UHGV virus genome: UHGV-0294963
DNA: 64,000 nucleotides
Strand: one strand, 5' to 3'
From: a virus
Shown: positions 5,628 through 54,452 of the stretch, piece after piece
Layout: each line of letters starts with the position of its first letter
Numbering within the stretch: the first letter of the stretch is position 1
Program-made: the position numbers and the translations under genes
Notes under the pieces: generated by a model
The model's database searches: none
The model's input: the letters and a program-made list of their open reading frames with translations, nothing else
What the model was told of the DNA's origin: nothing

Positions 5628-8285
5628 TTAGTCGTATGTCTCCTGGAAACCTGTAGGAGGAAGCAGGAACAAGTCGACATCGACTGTGTCAATAACACCA
5701 GTAACAGCAAGCTCAACCCTACCAATAACGGTGTTAGCATTGATGCGGTCAAGGTTAATGATATCGGGGTTCATGATAATACGATAGCCCCATGGATTGT
5801 ACTCATTACCTGTAAGAGCACCGACAGCTCTCATTTCATCAAGCAGAGGACTGAGTCCTGCATAGAAGTGTGAATATGCGTCTTCATTGTTGTATCTAAA
5901 CAGAATCTGAAGTGCTGTGTCCCAGATACGCTGCTTAACTCTGTTGGTAAGGAATCTGGTAGACAGATTCTGAAGTGCGTTGTAGGAACCAAGCGGCTTA
6001 TCCCAGAGTGTGCTATTACCAAAGCAAGTGAATCCCTTACCAGGAACCTCCATCAATGGATTTAAGCACACACCTTCGTCATGGTCTTGAATGAGGTCAA
6101 GATAATGCCTCTTGATTTTATATTCAGGTGTATGAACGACACCAGTACCGAGCATGCCCGCAGGTACCATCCACCACTTATTCTGCCCACCAACTCCCTT
6201 AGCATTGATGATAAGAAGTAGGTGTGCGATTTCAGGTGCAATCCAGGAATTAGCACCTGAAAGTGCTAGTGTAGTCTTACACCAAGGACCTACGACTTCA
6301 CCAAATGTCGAGTAGGTAGGACCTACGGCCTGGGAGACAGAATCCTTATACTTAAGAGCACCTGTCTTGACTGCAGAAGACCCTGTGCCTGTCTGAATAC
6401 CTCTAGGCATGCCGAAAGGTGTGCCAATGAGTGCAGCTCCGCACTTAGAATTAGCGGCAACTTCAATCATCTTGGTTACAAGCGTTGATACCTCATACTC
6501 CATGTAGAACGGATTAGCAGATGTATCACCATTTGCTTCAAGGAAGGACTGCGGTACATATTGGTCATCTGCGATACCCTGAACAAGGGCATCCCAATCA
6601 TAGACGATAGGGTCTGTAAGTTCATCGACTGTCTTATAGAAACGGCTATACATTATCTGCTGATTATATAGACGAACTAGAGCGTCAGGTTCATCAGTTG
6701 CGTATTTGGTTGCAATTCGATTAATATAATCGTAGAACTGACTATCAGTCGGAAAACGTTCTGCGACGATTGCTTTAACATCGTCGACTGTAATCTCTTC
6801 ACCGTCAGGTAATGTAGTTGCGTAGTCGGTACCATATATGAGTGAGGTAACCTGAACTCCGGTCGGATACTCTGAAGGAGAAATATTAGCTCCAGAACTG
6901 TAGACAATGAATGAAGGAGAGTCTAGGTTACTGAACGTAGCTTCTGTGATTAAAGGTCGATTGTCAGTAGCTGCGTCCTCATCAAATGCTACAGAAACGA
7001 TTTCTAGAAGCTGGTCGGTAGGAACAATCTCATTCGGGTTATTGTTATAACCGTTGTTGTCGAACACCTCGACTGTACCGATTTTGAAACCATCACTATT
7101 TAGGCCGCACTTAATGCGAACCTTCAGGTTGTTGCCGAACGAACCAGGGAATTTGGCTTGGAATCGAATGAGCTGAGTAGTTGATGGGATACTGGCAGCA
7201 ACACCTTCCGCGTAGAGTATGTCATGATTGCCAGAAGGTCGGTCTGTCCATGCGGAACCTAGTCGAACAGTGAACAATCCCAAATCAGAGTCATCTGAAG
7301 TGCTAGAGTAGATGTTCGATATACTGTTGTCAGATACAGCCTTGAGGCTCAGAAGTGCAGGTATGCTTTCAAGTTGAATGTACGTGAAGTCAGGTGCAAG
7401 AACGCTGTCGACAGTAATTGTACCATTCATTGCAGCAACACTAGGAACGTAAGTCGAGGTCTCTGTAATTGTGATATTACGTCTTTCAAGTACCGTACCG
7501 TCGGATGCGAATACAGATACCTGAACTGTGCCAGAAACAGTAACCTTCTTACCACGCTCTGACTTGTTGCCGACGATGACCGTTGAGTTTGTTGGCTTAA
7601 TCTGAGTAGTAAGAACTTCAGGCTTGCCGAACGCAACAATCAATGGCTTTTTCGTGTCGATTGCAGTTGCAGACTTAGCAGAAATCTTGAACTGGTTAGG
7701 AATAGAACCATGCACCGTCTTGTATCTATTGGTAACCGGGTCATAGACAGCCGAGAATACCTTGTATCTCAGAGTAGAATCTGGGTCAGGCATACCCCAA
7801 TCCCACACGATTCTACCGCCGACAAGTGTGTCGCGAGGAATATAAAATCTATACGGGATATTCTTATATGAAGCTGCTGTAGGTGTAGTCACCATATCAG
7901 GATAAAGCATAAGCGTATCGGCTGCAGGAGTAGGCTCTGTACCTCCGATAGGAACCACATATAGACTGTTGTGGCTTTTCTCACCCAGACCATCGACTCT
8001 CTTGACAAGAATATCATAGCCAGAAGCGAGAAGTTTGAGTGCGTAGTCGTACGATTTCTCGCGAGCACCAAGATACTTGTTCGCACCTCTGAAGGTCGAT
8101 ACAAAGTCTGTAGTGCCCCGGAAGCCTGCACTGAAATGTACCCAGTCCGGGTTGGCGTCCTCGTCACCCTCTACGAAGGTAGGACCCCAGATTGCAGCAA
8201 TCGGGAAAGCAACCGTTGCGTAAGAATTATTCTTAGTCTGGAAGCTGTAAGTCTCCGAATGCTCATAGATGTTAATTCTTGGCAT
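5628..8285 (-). CDS. tail sheath protein
   Basis: The ORF table starts at a TTG at 8291; an ATG with AGGAGGAG RBS is at 8285. The N-terminus (AIWGPTF...DFVSTFRGANKYLGAREKSYDYALKLLASGYDILVKRVD) resembles the sheath N-domain, e.g. T4 gp18 FQWGPAF...YGNDLRVVRAVD. The C-terminal region (WWMVPAGMLGTG...NPL...VIGRVELAVTGV) resembles the sheath C-domain. Comparison is from memory only. Confidence 0.6.
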   Translation of the reverse strand: MPRINIYEHSETYSFQTKNNSYATVAFPIAAIWGPTFVEGDEDANPDWVHFSAGFRGTTDFVSTFRGANKYLGAREKSYDYALKLLASGYDILVKRVDGLGEKSHNSLYVVPIGGTEPTPAADTLMLYPDMVTTPTAASYKNIPYRFYIPRDTLVGGRIVWDWGMPDPDSTLRYKVFSAVYDPVTNRYKTVHGSIPNQFKISAKSATAIDTKKPLIVAFGKPEVLTTQIKPTNSTVIVGNKSERGKKVTVSGTVQVSVFASDGTVLERRNITITETSTYVPSVAAMNGTITVDSVLAPDFTYIQLESIPALLSLKAVSDNSISNIYSSTSDDSDLGLFTVRLGSAWTDRPSGNHDILYAEGVAASIPSTTQLIRFQAKFPGSFGNNLKVRIKCGLNSDGFKIGTVEVFDNNGYNNNPNEIVPTDQLLEIVSVAFDEDAATDNRPLITEATFSNLDSPSFIVYSSGANISPSEYPTGVQVTSLIYGTDYATTLPDGEEITVDDVKAIVAERFPTDSQFYDYINRIATKYATDEPDALVRLYNQQIMYSRFYKTVDELTDPIVYDWDALVQGIADDQYVPQSFLEANGDTSANPFYMEYEVSTLVTKMIEVAANSKCGAALIGTPFGMPRGIQTGTGSSAVKTGALKYKDSVSQAVGPTYSTFGEVVGPWCKTTLALSGANSWIAPEIAHLLLIINAKGVGGQNKWWMVPAGMLGTGVVHTPEYKIKRHYLDLIQDHDEGVCLNPLMEVPGKGFTCFGNSTLWDKPLGSYNALQNLSTRFLTNRVKQRIWDTALQILFRYNNEDAYSHFYAGLSPLLDEMRAVGALTGNEYNPWGYRIIMNPDIINLDRINANTVIGRVELAVTGVIDTVDVDLFLLPPTGFQETYD

Positions 8286-15011: not shown

Positions 15012-15104
15012 TGTCGTTTACCCCCTTACTGTAATAATGTAATACAACACCACATATCTGCTGTAGCTTGCTTATGTTTTGCGTGGTTTTGTTAACCATG
15101 TAAT

Positions 15105-15165
15105 ACAGTTATACACATTTACAGTCACACACGCATGCTGTAGCGTGCTATGTAGTTCGTATATC
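15105..15165. repeat. family B element (TGTAGCGTGCTATGT)
   Basis: cacacacgcatgctgtagcgtgctatgtag, between the terminase and portal genes. Confidence 0.45.
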
Positions 15166-15278: not shown

Positions 15279-17231
15279 TCAGTGCATTTGTGTTAATCGG
15301 TCGAAAAATGACCAATCGTCTGGATTTCTTTCGAACGCAGTTCTGTCGTAGGCTTGCAGCCCACCGAATAGGCCGTTCTTGAACGACGAAGGCATTTTAT
15401 CTTCTTTTTCGTGTGAATACATCGTAAAATCATGTAAAACCGGAGTATAAGGTAACAGACTCAAATCCCATACAGCGCCTGCCAAGCTATCCGAAATATC
15501 TTTTGAACCATTAGCAGGATGGTCTAGCTTACCTGTATGGGTATCGTATTGAAGATAAATCAATTCATTTTCTAATCTAGCGTAATGAATTAGACTAATT
15601 CTACGCTCCATCATCGATTCACGCAGAGTCTTATAACCTTCTGGTGTACGGTCGAGTGAGCGTATAGCCGTGGTGAATCCTTTATCTCGCAATATCTGAT
15701 GAGACTCAGCTGTCTGGTAGGTATCGGTACTGATTATAGCAATATTAAATCCCACACTTCGTAGCCAGTACAGGAACCTTCGGTTCTTTGCCATGCTAAT
15801 TTCGGTACCAGGTGGAGCCTTGATACCGACAGAGAATACCTGAGCATAAACTCGTTTTTCTATTGTTCCATCATCGGTATCTGCCAGAACATTATCTACA
15901 TAGCAAGCACCCGATATACCAGTAATATCATTCTTCAATGACGTATCAAGATGTATAGCCATCGGTCTTGATTTATATTCCTTAGGTACCTTTTCTAGGT
16001 CGAAAAATTCTTGATACTCCATATGGTCGTTGCATCCTATCTCAAGTACCTCCGCTGAGAACGGATTTGGTCTATCTGTGTAGCACGAGCTGATAATCTT
16101 ATAACTGAAGTAGCTGGTTGTACCCGGTAGTGCTTTACCAGCAAGGTCCTGTAATGCAGTTATGATGTTGAACCGAAAATCTGACTCTAGTTCAACCGGG
16201 ACATCCAGTATCTCATATCCAAGCTGTCGTATGGCATCAAGGTCTTCTCCTTCTTCAATCACTCTAGGAGTTAGCTGTTTCGCACCGTAAGCAACCTTAA
16301 ACATTTTACCAGAATATGTATCAGAGGGTTTTACAACCCACAGCGGCTCGTCGACAATGAACAGTTTATCAGCGTCGTTCTCTTTTCGGCGTTTATCTAG
16401 ATACACCTCTAAGAAGTCGTCTTCTGCTTTCTTAGAAGAAACCAGGAACATCTTACCCAAGAGTTTTCCGTTCCTGATGAAACGTGATTTAATTCTGGCT
16501 TTAACCGAAGAGTAAGTCTGCATAATCTTAGACTTCTCCATGGTTGTATTCGAACCCGGTGCGAAGTTAACCTCATCAAGGAAACCACAGAATATTTGCT
16601 GACCTAAACCGTGACTTGCTTTAGAACCAGCTTTAATAGCAATATGTTTTCCTGGTACATAATAAGGGTTAGATGCGGAACCTGCAACGGTACCATGAGA
16701 CAGAAACCAAGGAGATTCCATAAGACACGCATGAAGTCGTCCGTAACCAACGCTTTGTGCCAGTGCAACCGTAGCGTTGAAGAAGAATATAGCAATTTCG
16801 TCGGTATCTGCGAATCCGAAATATCTTTGAGGGAATTTCAGACATAATAGTCGATATGTTAGGTAAGCAATGGCATAGACTGCAATCGCGGTCTTACCAA
16901 TACCGATAGCCCCTGTAAACGCAATTTCTTCGTATTCGGTATCTCCACCGGCAAATATCTTGCGTAGTTGTTCTCTCCAGAAAGGGTATATCTGATTACC
17001 TAGATTAGTGGCTTTACCTAGATATTCAGGGTCTTCTAGAAACGTGTCTATATCTACCGGAATCTCTTCATAGTCTTCTAGCCAGACTTTTTCATAGGTT
17101 TCACTCTCACCTGTTTCACTGAGCTCTCTGAGTATCTGCTGCATAGTCTCTTGCTCAGAAGGAGACAATGAATTATAGATACTTTGAAATCGTTCAGGAG
17201 CTAGCATAGTGAGATTTAGCGTACTACTCAT
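15279..17231 (-). CDS. terL: terminase large subunit
   Basis: 650 aa. Walker A is FTGAIGIGKT and Walker B-like is FLDEVNF. The C-terminal half has acidic nuclease-type motifs. First gene of the structural block. Confidence 0.8.
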   Translation of the reverse strand: MSSTLNLTMLAPERFQSIYNSLSPSEQETMQQILRELSETGESETYEKVWLEDYEEIPVDIDTFLEDPEYLGKATNLGNQIYPFWREQLRKIFAGGDTEYEEIAFTGAIGIGKTAIAVYAIAYLTYRLLCLKFPQRYFGFADTDEIAIFFFNATVALAQSVGYGRLHACLMESPWFLSHGTVAGSASNPYYVPGKHIAIKAGSKASHGLGQQIFCGFLDEVNFAPGSNTTMEKSKIMQTYSSVKARIKSRFIRNGKLLGKMFLVSSKKAEDDFLEVYLDKRRKENDADKLFIVDEPLWVVKPSDTYSGKMFKVAYGAKQLTPRVIEEGEDLDAIRQLGYEILDVPVELESDFRFNIITALQDLAGKALPGTTSYFSYKIISSCYTDRPNPFSAEVLEIGCNDHMEYQEFFDLEKVPKEYKSRPMAIHLDTSLKNDITGISGACYVDNVLADTDDGTIEKRVYAQVFSVGIKAPPGTEISMAKNRRFLYWLRSVGFNIAIISTDTYQTAESHQILRDKGFTTAIRSLDRTPEGYKTLRESMMERRISLIHYARLENELIYLQYDTHTGKLDHPANGSKDISDSLAGAVWDLSLLPYTPVLHDFTMYSHEKEDKMPSSFKNGLFGGLQAYDRTAFERNPDDWSFFDRLTQMH

Positions 17232-30917: not shown

Positions 30918-31679
30918 TTACAGAAATTGCTTATAGATAGGGTCTAAGCTATTATTGATAAAATCGCATTGATGGCACTTAAAGTCGATAATTTTTCGAA
31001 TTATTTCTACTTCAGAATCATAGATAGATGCTACTTTAGGACAGTGGTCAGACTCACCTAAGCTGATACCGCCATCAATTCGGATAGCAGGTGTGCAATA
31101 GAAGTGAGACACAAAAAGATGTTCAACAATCAAACCAATTGACGGGTTCTTCAACTGCTTGGTAACCGCTCGCACATTAAGACACTTAGACGCTTTCGCT
31201 TTCCATGGTAGCTTATTAGCGAGAGCTCTGCCTTGTGGGTATATCTGAGTAACACATCGGTCGCATAGAATAAATCCTGACTCACGCCAAAGTCTCTTGT
31301 GTAAGGGTAAGGCTTTCGGGTAGTATCTAGAGTCTGTAGATACCTGCCAAAATACTTTCGTGCACGGTGTTCCCGCTGCAATTCTTTTAGCAGCATCGGG
31401 ATGTTCTAGGCACCAGAATCCGTTCGTCGTAATCGTAATCACAGATTGGTGTCTCTCTTCAGAAAACCTGGTTAGTATTCTGTTCATAATCAATTCAAAA
31501 TCAGGGTGTTCGGTAGGCTCACCACCTGACACGACGACATGCTCATAAGCTTCGTTTCTGATTAGAAACTCTAGAACATCGTTGAGCGTGTCTAAAGTCA
31601 TATGTTCTCCTTCAGGTGTTGCACTGTTCATACAATGAGTACAACCCATCGAACATTTTTCAGTCAATTTCAGCAGCAT
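30918..31679 (-). CDS. radical SAM domain enzyme
   Basis: 253 aa. CSMGCTHC is a CxxxCxxC cluster motif near the N-terminus. VVVSGGEPT is a SAM-binding glycine-rich motif. Additional C-terminal cysteines are present. Confidence 0.7.
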   Translation of the reverse strand: MLLKLTEKCSMGCTHCMNSATPEGEHMTLDTLNDVLEFLIRNEAYEHVVVSGGEPTEHPDFELIMNRILTRFSEERHQSVITITTNGFWCLEHPDAAKRIAAGTPCTKVFWQVSTDSRYYPKALPLHKRLWRESGFILCDRCVTQIYPQGRALANKLPWKAKASKCLNVRAVTKQLKNPSIGLIVEHLFVSHFYCTPAIRIDGGISLGESDHCPKVASIYDSEVEIIRKIIDFKCHQCDFINNSLDPIYKQFL

Positions 31680-33392: not shown

Positions 33393-33593
33393 TTATCCTA
33401 ATAAGTCCCAGAACTCTTTAGAAGTAATCTGGTATATCTTAGTCGAGTCATAGGCATCGGTGATGACTACCTCTCCATTCTGCTCATACATGGAAATGAG
33501 CAATCCAGTACTGTCTTTCGGGTTACCACCGACTTTGCTGTCCTGGATGCGGTTTTCTTCTTTTAGCTCACGTCGTATAGGTAAATCCTTCAT
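33393..33593 (-). CDS. hypothetical small protein
   Basis: 66 aa ORF. Confidence 0.4.
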   Translation of the reverse strand: MKDLPIRRELKEENRIQDSKVGGNPKDSTGLLISMYEQNGEVVITDAYDSTKIYQITSKEFWDLLG

Positions 33594-34455
33594 GATAAAC
33601 CCCCTCCTTGATGGGCAAGACTACAATGTCGTGATTGCAAGCAGAAGCATGGTTGTTCGCCATATCAATAAATACAGATATTTCGCTAAATTCAACCGAA
33701 CTGTTACTTATCAGCTTTAAGCCTACAGTATCTCCCCAAACGAACAAAGTACCCGCCGGTAAAGTCGAAAAGGTCTGCTTGGTACGTTCTTTGTCAGAAA
33801 TAACCTTAACCTTGATATTAGAAGAAACCGTTCTGAGCTTATAGTAATCCATATCTACAATATTAGATTCATACGCTGCAGGGTGCTTTACCCAATCACC
33901 GTCTACCCGGTTGTCTTTTATCTTAATGCCTATCAGATTATACCAGCGGAATACAGCACCTACCGGTAATTCTGAGAACGAAATATCACCCTCCCAGTCT
34001 TCCTTCAGCTTCTCGATTTCAGATTGACTCAACGGCTTCACCCACAAGTCGGTTCGAGAGGTAATTCGATGTCCGTTGTCTAAACGAATAATATTTCCTT
34101 GATGCTTGGGCGACTTATCAGTGATAATCTCATTCGTGAGTTTTCTGAACAGCTTACCACCGAAGTTAAAGATAGTGCCTACAGGGACTTTCTCGAGAGG
34201 AAGCATACCACGCATCGCCTGATATCTCTTCTTATCGATTTTGCAGCCAGGGTATGCTTTTTCGATAGCAGCTACAATTTCGGTATTTATCTGTTCGGTG
34301 TTGGTGCAACCAGAAGCAGAATACCAGTCGTCGCCTAGGAAGTAATGACATAGTTCATCAAGAGCAACCTGAGCTTTCATTGGTGGTGCAAATATACCAT
34401 AATCACCAGGTTCGCATAAACTCAAAATACGGTCTCTGTCAAATTTCTTGTGCAT
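33568..34455 (-). CDS. hypothetical protein
   Basis: 295 aa ORF. Confidence 0.5.
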   Translation of the reverse strand: MHKKFDRDRILSLCEPGDYGIFAPPMKAQVALDELCHYFLGDDWYSASGCTNTEQINTEIVAAIEKAYPGCKIDKKRYQAMRGMLPLEKVPVGTIFNFGGKLFRKLTNEIITDKSPKHQGNIIRLDNGHRITSRTDLWVKPLSQSEIEKLKEDWEGDISFSELPVGAVFRWYNLIGIKIKDNRVDGDWVKHPAAYESNIVDMDYYKLRTVSSNIKVKVISDKERTKQTFSTLPAGTLFVWGDTVGLKLISNSSVEFSEISVFIDMANNHASACNHDIVVLPIKEGVYHEGFTYTT

Positions 34456-38541: not shown

Positions 38542-38976
38542 CTAGATATCCTCCGGATTGCCTGGACATATCGAACACCAGTAATCAGAACCCTCAAGAT
38601 ATTGAAACTTACAATCTAAGCAATTACCGTCTGGTTTGTTCATTTTGGTGCTTTGTTTAGCTACATTTCCCTCAGCATCACCGTCCATTCTTGCGCCGCA
38701 ATGTGGACAGAATTCGTAACCTTCGGATACCTTGACATATCTATTAGTGGACTCTTGTTCGCAGACAGAGCAATCCGCTTGATATACGTCAGATACATCA
38801 TTATAAAACTCAGATATCCACCTTCCATGCTTCACAAGCTGTACGTCTGCGGCGGAAACTTTCTGAACTTCTTTATCTATACCATCAAGCATTAGAATAG
38901 CACCCATATTTTGTAAACCCTGTCGATGCTTATAGATAATATCAGATACGCACTCACTACTTATATATTTAGCCAT
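38542..38976 (-). CDS. zinc-ribbon protein, paralog of next gene (start moved to MAKYISSE)
   Basis: C-terminal CPHCGARMDGDAEG is shared with the neighbouring CFGCGAKMDGDTDG. Confidence 0.45.
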   Translation of the reverse strand: MAKYISSECVSDIIYKHRQGLQNMGAILMLDGIDKEVQKVSAADVQLVKHGRWISEFYNDVSDVYQADCSVCEQESTNRYVKVSEGYEFCPHCGARMDGDAEGNVAKQSTKMNKPDGNCLDCKFQYLEGSDYWCSICPGNPEDI

Positions 38977-39295
38977 CTGTATCACCGTCCATTTTTGCAC
39001 CACAGCCGAAGCAGTATCTGAAGTCATTCCTGTTCCATGACTTGCTACCTCTTTCCTGTCCACAGTTCTCGCAATATGCGTTGTACGTCCCGTCACCCAT
39101 GGGAATCCATCTTGAATGAATCATAGACTGTGCGTCTGCGGCTGGGGTATCTTTGGGAATAACTATAAAATCATTTAGCAGTTCATCGATATGCTCATCT
39201 GTCCATACTGGAGATTCATTGCTCACACTGGATATATACCAATCAGACAGATAGCCATTACCCACAGCAGCTTCTTTGTTTATATACTCAGCCAT
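38969..39295 (-). CDS. zinc-ribbon protein, paralog of previous gene (start MAEYINKE with RBS AAGGAGGTAG)
   Basis: Tandem duplication of a CxxC...CxxCGAxMDGD module. Confidence 0.45.
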   Translation of the reverse strand: MAEYINKEAAVGNGYLSDWYISSVSNESPVWTDEHIDELLNDFIVIPKDTPAADAQSMIHSRWIPMGDGTYNAYCENCGQERGSKSWNRNDFRYCFGCGAKMDGDTDG

Positions 39296-39308
39296 TTTCA
39301 CTACCTCC

Positions 39309-39608
39309 TTACTTATCTTCGTCATCGTAGCAGTAATGTCTTTCATCCGGGTCTGCTAATACCAATTTTGAACAGCTCTGTGCAGAGGCTTGTTCTGGTG
39401 TAAGGTCGCCGTAGAGGTCGTGATAATAGTTAGGGTGATATACCTTGAGGTACGCAGTGTCATTTATGCAGTCCGTGTAGCCTCTTGGGCAGGTAGGTAC
39501 ATAAGCTTGAAATAATGAGTGTGTTGGAACATCTGCATAGACAGGGTTCTCGCGGCATTCTATACATCTTGACTTGTCGGTTGCACATACATCGCATCTA
39601 GATAACAT
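39309..39608 (-). CDS. Cys-rich small protein
   Basis: 99 aa ORF. Confidence 0.45.
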   Translation of the reverse strand: MLSRCDVCATDKSRCIECRENPVYADVPTHSLFQAYVPTCPRGYTDCINDTAYLKVYHPNYYHDLYGDLTPEQASAQSCSKLVLADPDERHYCYDDEDK

Positions 39609-40170: not shown

Positions 40171-40395
40171 TTACTCGACCTCTTTCGTATCGAACACATC
40201 TGGTATGATTACGATAGCATCATCAGGCAATCCGCGTTGTCTTAGAACACTATGCCACCCATCCGGGTCACTTTCATACTGTCTACGAGTCAGATATAGA
40301 TATTCCTCTTCTGGCTGACCTGAATCATGGAACAGACGCTCAGCTGCCTGTTCGATTGCTTTCTTGAGCTTTTCCTTGTAATATTTGCTAGACAC
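40171..40395 (-). CDS. hypothetical small protein
   Basis: 74 aa ORF. Confidence 0.4.
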   Translation of the reverse strand: MSSKYYKEKLKKAIEQAAERLFHDSGQPEEEYLYLTRRQYESDPDGWHSVLRQRGLPDDAIVIIPDVFDTKEVE

Positions 40396-40408
40396 AGTAT
40401 CAACTCCT

Positions 40409-40453
40409 TTACTGTACCTATATTATAACATATTGCGGTGTGGGTAACGAAGT
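40409..40453 (-). promoter_or_regulatory. conserved promoter element copy
   Basis: ctgtacctatattataacatattgcggtgtgggtaacgaagtt. Confidence 0.55.
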
Positions 40454-40469
40454 TGCGAAGCACCGCATA

Positions 40470-41050
40470 AGCACTCTAAAATTCCAGAATTGTCAACCGC
40501 AAGCTAGGAGTCGGGACTTCTGATATAGAAACTTTTTGCGAGAAATCGTGCTAGCAGAAAACGGTATCTAGGATTCTGGGGGTGTGGATTACCTGACACG
40601 AGAAGCTGGGCTTTCGAAATCAAGGGAGTCAAGAACCAGGGCTGGGAGACCGAGGAGTAGGGTTCGTAACCGGGAGCTGGGAGGTAGGGGTAGGGGGTAA
40701 AGGGTAGGGGATAGGGGGTTTGGATATGGAGACTTTTTGCGAAATCAGTGTCGGAGAAAAAACGTAAAAAGCGGGTCCGTAGTATCGGAATACCGTTGAA
40801 AGGTATTTCAGGACCGGTATTTTCGGGCGATTATTTTAAGGTATCTACAGCAGAACTTCGGTATTTTCCTGGTTTTGTGTTATATAACACATCTAGCAGA
40901 ACGACTCGAAGCTCCTTGCTACCAGCCTGAACCTAGCACGCTAACGCACGCTAAGGGCTTGCTGCTAGACATATGTTATACATCGTAGCTATGTTACCCT
41001 TAGCGTGCGTTGTGCTGCTATGTGCTGCTTTAGCGCTCACGAGCTCGTTG
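40470..41050. other. ~580 bp non-coding region with G-quadruplex motif, direct repeats, iteron-like GGTATTT(T)C repeats and palindromes; candidate replication origin / regulatory hub
   Basis: The G4 motif is GGGAGGTAGGGGTAGGGGGTAAAGGGTAGGGGATAGGGGG at ~40675-40715. AGCTGGG is repeated. GAnACTTTTTGCGA(G)AAATC occurs as a direct repeat at ~40528 and ~40728. GTGTTATATAACAC is a 14 bp palindrome at ~40884. CGCACGCTAAGGG/CCCTTAGCGTGCG is a perfect inverted pair at ~40940-41020. Confidence 0.5.
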
Positions 41051-41051
41051 C

Positions 41052-41486
41052 TTAAATGAGTGGCATTCTCCACCAAGCACTGTCTTCTTTGAGCTCTTCT
41101 GGGACTGCTCCGTTCGAATCCAAGATATAGAATGCCAGCTGTGCTGCTTGCTGCATTACCGTGGGGTGCATCGAACCCCTGACCACTCTCAGACTTACTT
41201 CCTTAAGAATTCCTTCCTGTCCCTCTTCGAGCCCTAAGCCAGAAGCGATAAGCTTCTTTGCTAACTCGATACTTCTCTCATCTCGACCGTCGGGGTAACG
41301 CTGTGCCATTGCCAGCACAAAAGCTACGCTGAAGTTATAGGCTTCCTCACCTACCTGAGCGTCTTCGATTGCCTGTGCGATTTCTGGAACACGCTTTGCG
41401 AACCCAAAGCTATTTGCTTCACTATCGAGCTCTTTGGTTGCCAAGGCATAAGCTCTTGCTTTAAGACATTCGATGAACTTATCCAT
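41052..41486 (-). CDS. hypothetical protein (start at MDKFIE ATG with strong RBS GGAGGTATAG)
   Basis: The ORF-table longer form starts at a GTG without an RBS. Confidence 0.45.
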   Translation of the reverse strand: MDKFIECLKARAYALATKELDSEANSFGFAKRVPEIAQAIEDAQVGEEAYNFSVAFVLAMAQRYPDGRDERSIELAKKLIASGLGLEEGQEGILKEVSLRVVRGSMHPTVMQQAAQLAFYILDSNGAVPEELKEDSAWWRMPLI

Positions 41487-41600
41487 ATCTATACCTCCTA
41501 TAAGGGTGTCCGGTTGAGTAAGCATTGTTCTCACTACTGCGAGAACTCGGACTGTGGTTTCTATGACCTACGCTGTGACGCAGTCGTCTTACCCAACCCA

Positions 41601-42039: not shown

Positions 42040-42085
42040 CATTATACAAGAAGCACAACCGTGTGGTATGCGTTAGCTGCTAACG
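42040..42085. repeat. family B element (ACCGTGTGGTATGCGTTAGCTGCTAACGTG)
   Basis: Nearly identical to the 2330-2360 copy. Confidence 0.45.
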
Positions 42086-42552
42086 TGATTGAGAAAGTAT
42101 TCTGTGAACGGGGCTTCACACTGTCGCCAACGCTCCTCGGTATAGGCTGCCACAATGCGGTCCCAAGCTTGGTCTTCTGTCAGACCTTCTGCTGTCATCA
42201 AGGATTTCAGAATAGTACCGTAATGGCATTTCGAGTTACCAAACTCTCCACACACATATCCATACCGTGCCATGATATATTCTTTGCTACCGAACTTTGC
42301 AGCACGAGCGTCTTCTGCGTGTATCCGAGCTGACCTGCACGCTCCAGTATTCCATCTTATCTCTTCTTGAATGCTATTCTGTTGAGCAGGGTAATAAGCA
42401 GCACGTTCAGATTGCCATGCCGAAGCTCTAGCCCTAGCCTCTGCCCTCCGAGCCTCTTCACGCTGAACTTCGGCCTGAGCTTCAGCTAGATACTCAGCAG
42501 CTCTCTTAGCATTGCGCATTTCTTCCCAAGTCCATTGAACACCGTTCGGCAT
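42073..42552 (-). CDS. hypothetical protein (start MPNGVQW with RBS AAAGGAGGTG)
   Basis: Has an Ala/Arg/Glu-rich central coiled-coil-like segment. Confidence 0.5.
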   Translation of the reverse strand: MPNGVQWTWEEMRNAKRAAEYLAEAQAEVQREEARRAEARARASAWQSERAAYYPAQQNSIQEEIRWNTGACRSARIHAEDARAAKFGSKEYIMARYGYVCGEFGNSKCHYGTILKSLMTAEGLTEDQAWDRIVAAYTEERWRQCEAPFTEYFLNHVSS

Positions 42553-44813: not shown

Positions 44814-44869
44814 TTGTGTTTTATTGTGCTTATATTATAACATTTCATGATTAAGAAAACGAAGTTTGA
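44814..44869 (-). promoter_or_regulatory. conserved promoter element copy
   Basis: gttgtgttttattgtgcttatattataacatttcatgattaagaaaacgaagtt. Confidence 0.55.
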
Positions 44870-44959: not shown

Positions 44960-45045
44960 ATGTTACCAATAAAAGTATACATCGCACACCACCACACGGT
45001 ATACCGTAGCGTGCTGTGTCTGCGGTGAATACCGATAGATAGCAG
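44960..45045. repeat. family B element (CACGGTATACCGTAGCGTGCTGTGT)
   Basis: caccacacggtataccgtagcgtgctgtgtctgcgg. Confidence 0.45.
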
Positions 45046-45048
45046 TAA

Positions 45049-45120
45049 GCATTTATAGAGCTTCGAGTATCCATATGGTTTTGTGTTATATAACACATTT
45101 TACCGTGCATACCGAAGCTC
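45049..45120. repeat. ~70 bp palindromic element centred on GTGTTATATAACAC with TAGAGCTTCG / CGAAGCTCTA arms
   Basis: atagagcttcgagtatccatatggttttgtgttatataacacattttaccgtgcataccgaagctctacgaac. Confidence 0.5.
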
Positions 45121-47299: not shown

Positions 47300-47430
47300 T
47301 TTACATGAGTACACAATACCATAAAGATACACAGCATGCGGTAGCGTGCTGTGGGTTCCGTATCATTGATATATAATTACACACCGTGCACAACCACGTG
47401 GTATACCACAGTTTGCGAGGTGGTGCTTTC
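47300..47430. repeat. family B element pair (GGTAGCGTGCTGTG ... CACAACCACGTGGTATACCACAG)
   Basis: Seen directly. Same motifs as at 52.0 and 45.0 kb. Confidence 0.5.
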
Positions 47431-48812: not shown

Positions 48813-48867
48813 TTGTGTTTTATTGTATCTATATTATAACACTGCTAGATTTGGTTTCCGAAGTTCT
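48813..48867 (-). promoter_or_regulatory. conserved promoter element copy (tandem 2)
   Basis: gtgttgtgttttattgtatctatattataacactgctagatttggtttccgaagtt. Confidence 0.6.
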
Positions 48868-49284
48868 CAAATCTTACGCACGCTGGTGTTTGCGGTGTGA
48901 TTGTGCAGGTGTATAGTTATACGCCTAGGTTGAGTTGCGTGGTTCTGCGTGTGGTTTGCTGTGGGTATGGCGGTGTGCGTGGTTAGAATGCTGAAGTTCA
49001 GAATCGTATATAGCTAAAAAGCCGCCCGCAGGGCAAGTCCGAAACTCGTGGAACAGGCGGCCCAGGTGGGGGTCGTCGAAGACAAGATATGTTCGTCACC
49101 GATAACGGTGAGTGGTAGGTACGAAAGGTTTACCTGTCGGTGGGCGTACAGAATGGGAGCCCGGCGAACATATATTATATTGTGAGGCGTGTAGAAGATA
49201 TAGAATTGCGAATCCTGTACGAAATCAAGAGCTTCGAGTTAAGCTGCTTTGTACGATTTACACAAATTCCGTCAGAAACCGCAA

Positions 49285-51949: not shown

Positions 51950-52085
51950 TACAAGACATTGGATTCTTAATATAGCAACACGCACGCTAAGGTTTTGCTG
52001 TGGATACCGTGTGTATGGTTATAACTTATACGTGGTGCACAACCGTGGTGTAAACCACAGCGTGCTATGTCTGGTACAACCAGCC
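51950..52085. repeat. family B element pair (CACGCACGCTAAGG ... CACAACCGTGGTGTAAACCACAGCGTGCTATGT)
   Basis: Seen directly. Confidence 0.5.
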
Positions 52086-53436: not shown

Positions 53437-53507
53437 GGTACACCCAGAATAGTTACGCATATTATAATGAACGTGCGCGCACGCGATTAACACAGAAGAG
53501 GGTTAGG

Positions 53508-53555
53508 ACTCGAAGCTCAGATGGCTATAGCTTTCTTTCTGAGCTTCGAGTCCTT
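53508..53555. other. large perfect hairpin GGACTCGAAGCTCAGA / TCTGAGCTTCGAGTCC (16 bp arms, 16 nt spacer)
   Basis: Seen directly. The arm sequence is related to repeat D (AGCTTCGAGT). Confidence 0.5.
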
Positions 53556-53617
53556 CTGTTGCACGCGATTAGCAAGAACTTGAAGTTATCTACTCAACTT
53601 CGGAGTAGAAGAAATAG

Positions 53618-53675
53618 AACTTCGTGATTTGTATATGAGACTGTTTATAATGTAGATACAGTTAAACAACTTCGT
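53618..53675 (+). promoter_or_regulatory. conserved promoter element copy in + orientation
   Basis: + strand reads aacttcgtgatttgtatatgagactgtttataatgtagatacagttaaaca. This is the same architecture as the - strand copies but inverted, and it faces the small + strand ORF. Confidence 0.5.
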
Positions 53676-53775
53676 GATACTGTTCTGGAATAGATTAAAC
53701 TACTCTAGAATAGAAACTGAAGTTGTCTATTCTAAACATACCGGAGCTTCGGTGTCGTTAGCAGGAGGTGATAGA

Positions 53776-53982
53776 ATGGAACAGATAATCCGTAGAAGGT
53801 ATTCCGAAGATTGTCAGGTACCTGCGGTGGCATTCGAGTGTTGGAAGACTGTTCTAACTCGATTTCGAACTTCGGCTTGGCAGAAGACGATTTTCGACAT
53901 ATCAGCGTGCGATAATTTTCCGGTGTCTGTTCTCCTTGCTACCACCCCTGTTCTCCCGAGTTTCCAGCCCGATTTGGAGTAG
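53776..53982 (+). CDS. small + strand protein (68 aa), candidate regulator
   Basis: ATG preceded by GCAGGAGGTGATAGA. Sequence begins MEQIIRRRYSEDCQVPAVAFECWKTV. It sits in the only + strand island of the - arm. Confidence 0.35.
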   Translation: MEQIIRRRYSEDCQVPAVAFECWKTVLTRFRTSAWQKTIFDISACDNFPVSVLLATTPVLPSFQPDLE

Positions 53983-54221
53983 TTCTTTTTGTATAGAATT
54001 CACAAAAATCACCTATCGTAGGCGGTGGATTGTCGTTAGGCACTGCTAGAAGAGGATGATAGATGATGGAAATAAACGGTCAATGGGCGGAAATTTTGAA
54101 CCGGTATCTTGGTGATAACTGAACGGTTTCGAGCGCCGCGATTCCTTTCTGTTTATTTCTCACAAACCGGATGACATACCACCGTTACGCTGGTGTGTTG
54201 TTACTACATTTTCTAGAATAT

Positions 54222-54258
54222 TCATAGATTACCTGTGACATTTGTCGTTGCCGACATT
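54222..54258. promoter_or_regulatory. operator-like repeat GTGACATTTGTCG-ttgcc-GACATTTGTCAC
   Basis: Two copies of the palindromic GACAtttGTC in direct orientation, seen directly. Confidence 0.4.
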
Positions 54259-54452
54259 TGTCACCTTTTTACTCTGTATTTTTGGTGTATTACCTGGTGT
54301 ATCCATAGTGAACTCTTGGTATATAAAAACACCGAGCGTACCTAACGCCCGGTATTATTGTGATATTCAGGTTCTGTCATCGACTTCTACCGAAATCCGA
54401 TTTCGATGGAATAAACTTTCTACGTCGCAATACATATACATTCATGTCTGCA

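Follow-up and report, generated by a model that had tools for sequence, protein, structure and literature searches.

A C-rich spacer of rapidly changing sequence in a conserved non-coding module of phage early genes, a candidate transcription insulator

The stretch of the UHGV virus genome UHGV-0294963 analyzed here (64,000 nucleotides, the window in what follows) comes from a large, uncultured tailed phage of ~160 kb, whose early gene cluster hosts a gene-free gap of 656 bp (40396-41051). From its sequence and that of its relatives, this gap appears to be a conserved non-coding control module. Its central part is a spacer that seems to keep a property (C tracts, a tendency to form G-quadruplexes (G4) and scarcity of G, all on one given strand) while its sequence turns over completely, a conclusion that is comparatively well supported. 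We propose, tentatively and at clearly less than even chance, that the region is transcribed early into a non-coding RNA, C-rich and unstructured, that brings transcription to a stop ahead of the next early promoter, likeliest by way of Rho. A previous sequence-only reading had described a gene-free region that could be either a replication origin or a regulatory hub. All the features that it listed are present where it had located them, the lack of genes was borne out, and its idea of a regulatory hub agrees with what we found: an early promoter (40410-40454, minus strand), a two-way variant of this promoter (40854-40913), a conserved untranslated leader and a strong 3' hairpin.

The gap is delimited by two open reading frames (ORFs) of the minus strand, 41052-41534 and 40171-40395, and contains only short ORFs without a ribosome-binding site (RBS), none of them credible. 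The comparison set was made of 12 distinct full-length loci, the window included, and across these relatives neither the reading frames nor the start codons of the gap are conserved, and the substitutions follow no codon-position pattern. A hidden small gene on the sense strand was considered and discarded, the stop-free frames being a by-product of composition that shift between relatives. The same fate befell an antisense ORF ('...RSIGIPLKGIS.PVFSG...'), broken by an 11-nt insertion in the group of relative L002 and with non-synonymous variable sites. Read along the sense (minus) strand, the module consists of a hairpin, the two-way promoter, the leader, a direct repeat, the hypervariable spacer, a second direct repeat and the early promoter. 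The first of these elements is a terminator hairpin in the relatives and a hairpin of a different kind (family B, see below) in the window. We have found this intergenic module in ~18 distinct contigs, always in the same position despite differing flanking genes. Since the flanking genes are on the minus strand, the plus strand is the template, and the C-rich strand is the non-template one and has the same sequence as the RNA; the first reading had this the wrong way around. No intrinsic terminator (GC-rich hairpin plus U-run) was detected on either strand of 40200-41300, nor between the two-way promoter and the next one in the window or in relative L005. A search of Rfam gave no match at the gathering score, and three chance-level hits (E > 6) under a permissive threshold; the sole tRNA in the window is at 60.2 kb.

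On the sense strand, the hypervariable spacer (40560-40740, minus strand) is rich in C and poor in G. Its peak 78-nt window (40654-40731; C = 42, G = 4) is the top one of the 64 kb for C over G on the sense strand. Just 13-45% of the spacer can be aligned to relatives, and the repeated units differ, C4-5TA in the window, CTCCCAG or CTCCCGA (CTCCCRR) in most relatives and CACCCCG in L004. In 11 of the 12 genomes the window with most C over G of the locus is located 41-127 nt past an invariant motif, its 78 nt containing 37-45 C and 4-11 G. C runs of at least three nucleotides exceed those of composition-matched shuffles in all 12, in seven of them at P < 0.05. The minimum-energy fold of the spacer RNA predicts a run of ~52-56 nt to be unpaired. 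On the template strand the C tracts appear as an array of G tracts, GGGAGCTGGGAGGTAGGGGTAGGGGGTAAAGGGTAGGGGATAGGGGG (40672-40718, plus strand), with eight runs of at least three G, six in the shorter string described before. By the canonical criteria (four or more runs, each of at least three G, with loops of 1-7 nt), the G3+N1-7 scan identified it as the only G4 motif in the 64 kb, where shuffles have 0.29 on average and 2 at most. Its G4Hunter maximum (2.44 in 25-nt windows, values above 1.5 being considered high) is the highest in the window. A canonical motif is found at the homologous place in nine of the 12 loci, with the C tracts always on the sense strand and G4Hunter values of -1.36 to -2.40 for the relatives on the same strand. 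The ~150 kb of flanking DNA from the relatives contained only one other, within a proline-rich coding stretch. The case for the G-quadruplex motif noticed in the sequence-only reading is strengthened by comparison, its potential being kept in relatives without its sequence. As for the AGCTGGG units described next to it, exact copies do exist (40604-40610 and 40675-40681), but they are just two and constitute weak evidence alone. Two other tracts can be mentioned here. In L003, ~5.5 tandem copies of CAGCTGTCAGTTGT and repeats of the AAAGCTG(G/T)GAGCTAGAA type are found inside the spacer, beside the C-tract array (6140-6225). A second G-poor spacer ahead of an early promoter (48833-48865), CA-rich and with C = 32 and G = 8 of 78, is found at 48880-49000 (minus strand), in this case after an intrinsic terminator.

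Our preferred explanation, a transcription insulator, would work as follows. A very stable hairpin would close the upstream gene, and the symmetric variant of the early promoter would start transcription both ways. The RNA produced from the leftward start would be untranslated, its conserved leader of ~125 nt ending in a U-rich tract, after which the C-tract RNA could act as a rut-type loading platform for the host Rho; the G tracts of the template strand, possibly as a G4, may add a roadblock. Untranslated transcription coming from upstream or from the two-way promoter would in this way stop before overrunning the early promoter at 40454. An early non-coding RNA would thereby acquire its 3' end, and the operon downstream would be insulated. 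The leftward untranslated RNA and the rut function of its tract are thus predictions, and the composition agrees with them, as the tract is C-rich and G-poor over ~70-80 nt (the 42 C and 4 G given above) in an RNA that would be untranslated and unstructured. That no intrinsic terminator was detected from the two-way promoter to the next one also supports the insulator, as does the fixed place of the module among differing flanking genes, and a precedent is offered by the early non-coding RNAs of phage K, described below. If it is correct, the G-quadruplex potential would reflect a C-tract composition under selection rather than mark an origin. One of the closest known parallels is the pR-nutR-tR1 region of lambda (Rho-dependent, with a C-rich rut), where untranslated, C-rich, G-poor and unstructured RNA also follows an early promoter and precedes the next set of genes, and where composition rather than sequence is conserved. 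The tract of the phage is more extreme (54% C, 5% G) and built of C runs, a separate promoter is located directly downstream, and the host Rho is presumed. No boxA/boxB-like antitermination hairpin, as found in lambda, was detected in the gap module.

The predicted starting point of this unit is a perfect 14-bp palindrome, GTGTTATATAACAC, reported by the sequence-only reading and confirmed at 40877-40890 and 45083-45096 (two copies in the window, 0.29 expected). It appears to serve as the -10 of both arms in a symmetric variant of the early promoter that points both ways (40854-40913, both strands), as judged by weight matrix and conservation. The plus arm is formed by AACTTCGG (40854-40861), 16 nt and TGTTATATAACA, and the minus arm by AGCTTCGA (the reverse complement of 40906-40913), again 16 nt and TGTTATATAACA; the predicted starts are at ~40893 (plus, rightward) and ~40874 (minus, leftward). 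We have used a weight matrix built from 19 canonical promoters (with AACTTCG-N16-TGTTATA as the test pattern for the family), in which the canonical promoter 40422-40454 (minus strand) scores 40.2 bits and ranks 2 of all positions. Three arms associated with the palindrome rank directly behind the canonical family and belong to it. The plus arm (40854-40886) reaches 18.2 bits (rank 23, the best plus-strand site in the window), the 45-kb copy (45087-45119) 16.1 bits (rank 25) and the minus arm (40881-40913) 11.5 bits (rank 26), the maximum in shuffled windows being 13.3 bits. Both arms are kept in all the relatives, and the palindrome occurs at least twice per genome. The strength of these predicted promoters is uncertain because they have neither a T at -7 nor the conserved block ATATAGATACAATA found downstream of the -10 in the canonical family. 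The other copy in the window forms part of a second palindromic two-way promoter (45059-45119; minus arm AGCTTCGG-N16, plus arm AGCTTCGA-N17), followed by ~190 nt of non-coding sequence and then by an early promoter (44830-44866). One of the relatives has a further copy in the opposite orientation 13 kb away, and a reversed copy is found in L009 (1243-1300).

Symmetric promoters are known in bacteria: transcription diverges from a single -10 that is nearly palindromic, with starts ~18 bp apart (PMC10268837). Those of Warman et al. (2021), as they are presented in PMC10268837 and PMC12825309, share with the phage promoter the single near-palindromic -10 serving both strands, the -35-like element at each side and the divergent starts, expected at ~18-20 bp from each other, and their divergent RNA is often non-coding or antisense. 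Compared to the examples in these accounts, the phage -10 is a perfect 14-bp palindrome, with AACTTCG/AGCTTCG at exactly 16 nt in both arms, and its hexamer TATATA does not have the T at -7; it is also a promoter predicted from sequence.

Several points weigh against the insulator. The 11.5 bits of the minus arm, the one that would make the C-rich RNA, are within the range of the best shuffled scores, and the shared -10 hexamer TATATA is missing the usual T at -7. The start sites, the ends of the RNA and the dependence on Rho are all predicted, and the presence of Rho in the host is presumed. The strong conservation of the leader is left without a structural explanation. Ordinary intrinsic terminators are used elsewhere in this phage, so that a factor-dependent stop is not obviously needed. 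Finally, C runs of at least three nucleotides are found more often than composition would predict. Rho needs no C runs, while the formation of a G4 or i-motif, or slippage of short units, would yield them.

The excess of C runs leads to the possibility that what matters is the DNA itself, a G4/i-motif switch that would tune the adjacent early promoters under the negative supercoiling of divergent transcription, a role that has been proposed in the case of herpesvirus immediate-early promoters. Along these lines, the motif is the only non-coding one in the window and in the ~150 kb of flanks from the relatives, and three different types of unit occupy the same place, with C runs above the shuffles in every genome. 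The immediate-early promoters of alphaherpesviruses also conserve G4 potential, located upstream of the earliest promoters across related viruses (PMC6651000). Their quadruplexes are sequence-conserved, have been shown experimentally to fold and involve the eukaryotic transcription machinery, whereas in the phages it is a predicted potential that is conserved. We consider such a switch unlikely. Three of the 12 loci do not have a canonical motif, the tract is 100-250 bp from the -35 of either promoter, folding is predicted only, and plain C-richness explains most of the signal. The literature that we searched on phage G4 elements provided no phage precedent.

Slippage, in turn, would fit a spacer without any function, left over from tandem duplications of the early promoter region, prone to slip and kept C-rich as the units already present expand and contract. 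L001-type relatives have a decayed promoter copy after the first direct repeat (-35 AATCTCC, -10 TGTTCGTGT), and therefore part of the spacer probably arose by tandem duplication of the promoter region. The copy number of the repeats varies, the tandem array (CAGCTGTCAGTTGT)n of L003 is not C-rich, and the five contigs that break in the tract would fit heterogeneity among strains. A mere remnant is nonetheless an improbable explanation. The spacer is C-rich and G-poor in 11 of 12 genomes through a complete turnover of sequence and with unrelated types of unit, and inert DNA of 200-350 bp is rarely retained in phages.

The RNA could also act in trans. An early long non-coding RNA might soak up a host factor, or pair with G-rich Shine-Dalgarno regions, through its repeated C tracts, predicted to be single-stranded, and through the GAAAAUACC units present in its leader. 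In Firmicutes, small RNAs of the RsaE/RoxS type have C-rich motifs that pair with G-rich Shine-Dalgarno regions. The predicted RNA has a promoter of its own, its 5' domain is conserved and its C-rich body is without predicted structure. Relatives differ in how many of the repeated motifs they have, and ACCUCCC-like strings are frequent in the tract. Early RNAs of this kind are made by phage K, a myovirus of the Herelleviridae, which transcribes intergenic non-coding RNAs from their own early promoters (PMC9241854). The resemblance extends to the large myovirus genome, the intergenic location and a function that is likewise not known, but there is no sequence relation, and the RNAs of phage K, which are close to tRNA genes, have not been reported to be rich in C or hypervariable (PMC9241854). 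Action in trans seems doubtful to us. No terminator delimits the RNA in the module and no target was identified, the phage's own GGAGG ribosome-binding sites would be hit too, and hypervariability speaks against specific base-pairing. It is equally doubtful, on the whole, that the C-tract array is itself what is selected, be it as a trans-acting poly-C-like early RNA (for instance a decoy titrating host Rho or another C-binding factor while the phage takes over the cell), or, between divergent early promoters, as a G4/i-motif switch or as part of a G4-assisted origin. We know of no established example in tailed phages of a poly-C decoy RNA or of a G4/i-motif switch or origin.

The leader of the predicted minus-arm transcript (40753-40874, minus strand, ~120-130 nt) was recognized by its conservation. 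Its 3' end is a U-rich tract, CGCTTTTTACGTTTTTTCTCC (40753-40773), and across relatives it finishes in CGC(A/T)TTTTACGTTTTT. A stretch of 44 nt (40766-40809) is identical in L003, the adjacent gene of which is 72% identical. Promoter and leader together are 78-84% identical to four relatives over 90-98% of the length, with 69-89% for the adjacent gene, and in the remoter relatives the leader is more conserved than the neighboring genes. The GGTATTT(T)C units that had been compared to iterons are there, with GGTAT at 40802, 40816, 40840 and 40860 (GGTATTTYC has five copies in the window, two of them within the gap, versus 0.79 expected). They are GAAAATACC-type units of the leader, numbering ~3 to 5 among relatives, and an inverted copy can form a small hairpin, GAAATACC-N7-GGTATTCC. 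A structured RNA was considered for the leader and rejected. Its fold is not more stable than shuffles (z = -0.6), Rfam has no match, and Alifold gives one small hairpin with no compensatory changes across the relatives. The covariation of this only conserved hairpin is not assessable, because its 3' arm is invariant even if left free in the search. The hairpin ahead of the U-rich tract is weak, and its changes are not compensated either. The invariant core of the leader contains, in antisense, a sigma-70-like match (TTGAAA-16-TATTTT, 40796-40823, plus strand), seen also in L005 (5192-5219), that may be due to chance or may be part of the reason why the core is conserved.

A direct repeat of ~28 nt flanks the spacer on each side in every genome. 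The pair spaced ~200 bp apart in the sequence-only reading corresponds to 40513-40541 and 40714-40742 (29 nt, 79% identical, 201 bp apart), though the 11-mer core alone is not above chance. On the minus strand, the first copy (40714-40749) comes directly after the U-rich tract, 28-34 nt past the invariant motif in all 12 full-length relatives, and the last one (40513-40549) is upstream of the early promoter. There are two to four copies per genome, some genomes having one or two extra inside the tract. Concerted evolution of the copies was considered and dropped, as two sequence types mix within genomes (L003, L002, L014).

These repeats, together with the GGTAT units, might be taken as the initiator-binding iterons of a replication origin, in which divergent transcription would drive negative supercoils into the 400 bp between the promoters and the G4/i-motif tract would aid opening of the duplex. 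The module is non-coding, syntenic and independent of the neighboring genes, has its two to four direct repeats per genome and is found between a divergent pair, the rightward start near 40893 and the leftward promoter at 40454. There is also some analogy to the mitochondrial control region, which combines two-way promoters, a block of G tracts and hypervariable segments. The iteron-type origins of lambda (ori) and P1 (oriR) and the putative origin of phage K are likewise non-coding, with direct repeats and with promoters nearby. The evidence that an origin would be expected to leave was not found, and we consider it slightly less probable than the unlikely alternatives discussed above. There is no AT-rich unwinding element in the gap, where AT reaches 0.65 per 40 nt, under the 99th percentile of the window (0.72; maximum 0.85). 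Cumulative GC skew declines steadily over 3-64 kb, showing no inflection and only a local plateau at 39-42 kb due to the G tract, in a calculation that covers 64 of ~160 kb and is dominated by gene orientation. No initiator, helicase or primase could be recognized near the gap with PHROGs or Pfam, most of the neighbors having no family match. The GGTAT units are spaced 12, 25 and 19 bp and are not helically phased. Instead of an array of at least three phased direct repeats, the window has two widely spaced copies and the relatives two to four at irregular distances. The palindrome is present at least twice per genome, and the leftward arm would give a C-rich RNA, the wrong polarity for an R-loop or a G4 primer. 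A single candidate DnaA box (TGTGGATTA, 40583-40591, 8 of 9 positions) was discarded as it was not seen in the sequences of the relatives. The origin proposed for phage K, an untranscribed intergenic region with the lowest GC (PMC9241854), is also unlike the gap, which is probably transcribed.

Five of the ~18 contigs (L004, L008, L017, L018 and L019) end inside the tract, 14, 35, 60, 76 and 190 nt past the invariant motif; the apparent ends of L012 and L013 are storage cuts and were not counted. These breaks could be read as the genome terminus, the boundary of a terminal repeat or a packaging signal. Direct repeats with short C/G-rich arrays are found too in the 'a' sequence of herpesviruses and at the ends of T7. 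We find a terminus or packaging site very improbable. A fixed physical terminus was discarded because the ends fall at five different positions and other contigs of 118-166 kb run through the region. The packaging site that had been suggested is unsupported too, as the gene of the large terminase subunit (15279-17231) is ~24 kb away. The variable break positions point rather to strain heterogeneity or to poor coverage of the tract, which makes the spacer a recurrent break point in assemblies.

At the other end of the module, directly past the stop of ORF 41052-41534, a long hairpin of family B occupies 40931-41023 (minus strand). Its core is the 13-bp inverted pair described previously, which is indeed perfect, CGCACGCTAAGGG (40945-40957) and CCCTTAGCGTGCG (40997-41009), and its arms extend to 27 nt with 81% complementarity. 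The RNA fold has an energy of -47.4 kcal/mol (z = -5.0 versus shuffles). It is not a classical intrinsic terminator, because it has no U-run, and we regard it as a candidate 3'-end RNA element that might act as a stabilizer, a processing site or a pause site. Other family B elements, of the AGCACGCT...TTAGCGTGCG type (AGCACGCTA, ~26 nt, TGTATAA and, in some copies, TTAGCGTGCG), are found on the minus strand past gene ends in both the early and the late regions (~2290-2380, 15100-15160, 42042-42090, 44960-45015, 47343-47425 and 52026-52074). They could be long hairpins or a second class of promoters.

The early promoter that closes the module (40410-40454, minus strand) is a canonical member of a family, AACTTCGT-N16-TGTTATAATATAGATACAATAAAA (with the -10 block TGTTATAATATAG), of which a repeat search found ~28 copies on the minus strand between 27.5 and 62.2 kb (27500-62200), densest at 41-55 kb, ahead of small genes and often with CTAG near -20. 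In this copy, AACTTCGTTACCC (40442-40454) and TGTTATAATATAGGTACAGTA (40410-40430) are followed by the RBS AAGGAG and the GTG start (40393-40409) of ORF 40171-40395, the first gene of the downstream operon. The conservation of the family extends ~15 nt beyond the -10, an uncommon trait in sigma-70/sigma-A promoters of a host. The early region has other gene-free stretches. In a large one (53450-54330), the early promoter recurs on the plus strand (~53618-53669), and the motifs AACTTCG and AGCTTCGAG are present several times, on both strands. The 9-mer AGCTTCGAG has eight copies in the window (26714, 40905, 45059, 47461, 49230, 52107, 53509 and 53542; 0.46 expected), seven of them within the early region at 40-54 kb, for the most part on the plus strand and often as AGCTTCGAGTTCTTCTGCTG. 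Another stretch of ~700 nt has two candidate small RNA genes on the minus strand (49437-49285 and ~49240-49020), neither of which has a match in Rfam. In the first, a near-consensus promoter, TTGACT-17-TGTTATAAT (49437-49409), is accompanied near 49335-49285 by a hairpin that has a U-run, and the second ends at an intrinsic terminator (49036-49022).

The phage itself has no cultured counterpart at the DNA level, as blastn against 50,697 phage records gave no similarity to cultured phages. The genes of the window, nearly all on the minus strand, include those for a tail sheath, a major head protein, a portal, a large terminase and a NAD-dependent ligase. The capsid protein seems to be distantly SPO1-like, with only distant matches (24-30% identity) in myoviruses of Bacillus, Listeria, Streptococcus and Flavobacterium. 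The relatives are IMG/VR contigs of 147-166 kb and metagenome contigs, which we take to be derived from the rumen. Searching 185,579 genomes for a host with the invariant 24-mer gave no matches, and degenerate patterns designed for remoter relatives recovered the same clade only. The neighbors of the gap comprise many small proteins of unknown function, a protein with a Tad8-like (Thoeris inhibitor) domain (33568-34455, minus strand) and a radical-SAM protein (30918-31679, minus strand). The last two genes point to an early anti-defence or accessory region, as far as can be predicted from their sequences. A pair of neighboring ORFs that overlap (38542-39346, minus strand) codes for small paralogs bearing CxxC pairs that resemble zinc ribbons (phrog_22543), and in relatives the gene of an unrelated CxxC protein is found immediately upstream of the two-way promoter.

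Taken as a whole, the module brings together elements of known kinds (early promoters, a two-way promoter and an untranslated tract resembling a rut site), and its analysis defines an early promoter consensus for a clade of uncultured phages. The promoters, the 3' hairpin and the untranslated leader are ordinary here; what is left unexplained is the spacer and the C-tract character that it has kept. If this spacer does turn out to be a Rho-loading or G4 element, it would represent a compact transcription insulator, defined by composition, in a phage of Gram-positive type, and would provide a practical test case for the involvement of non-B DNA or poly-C RNA in the control of phage early genes.

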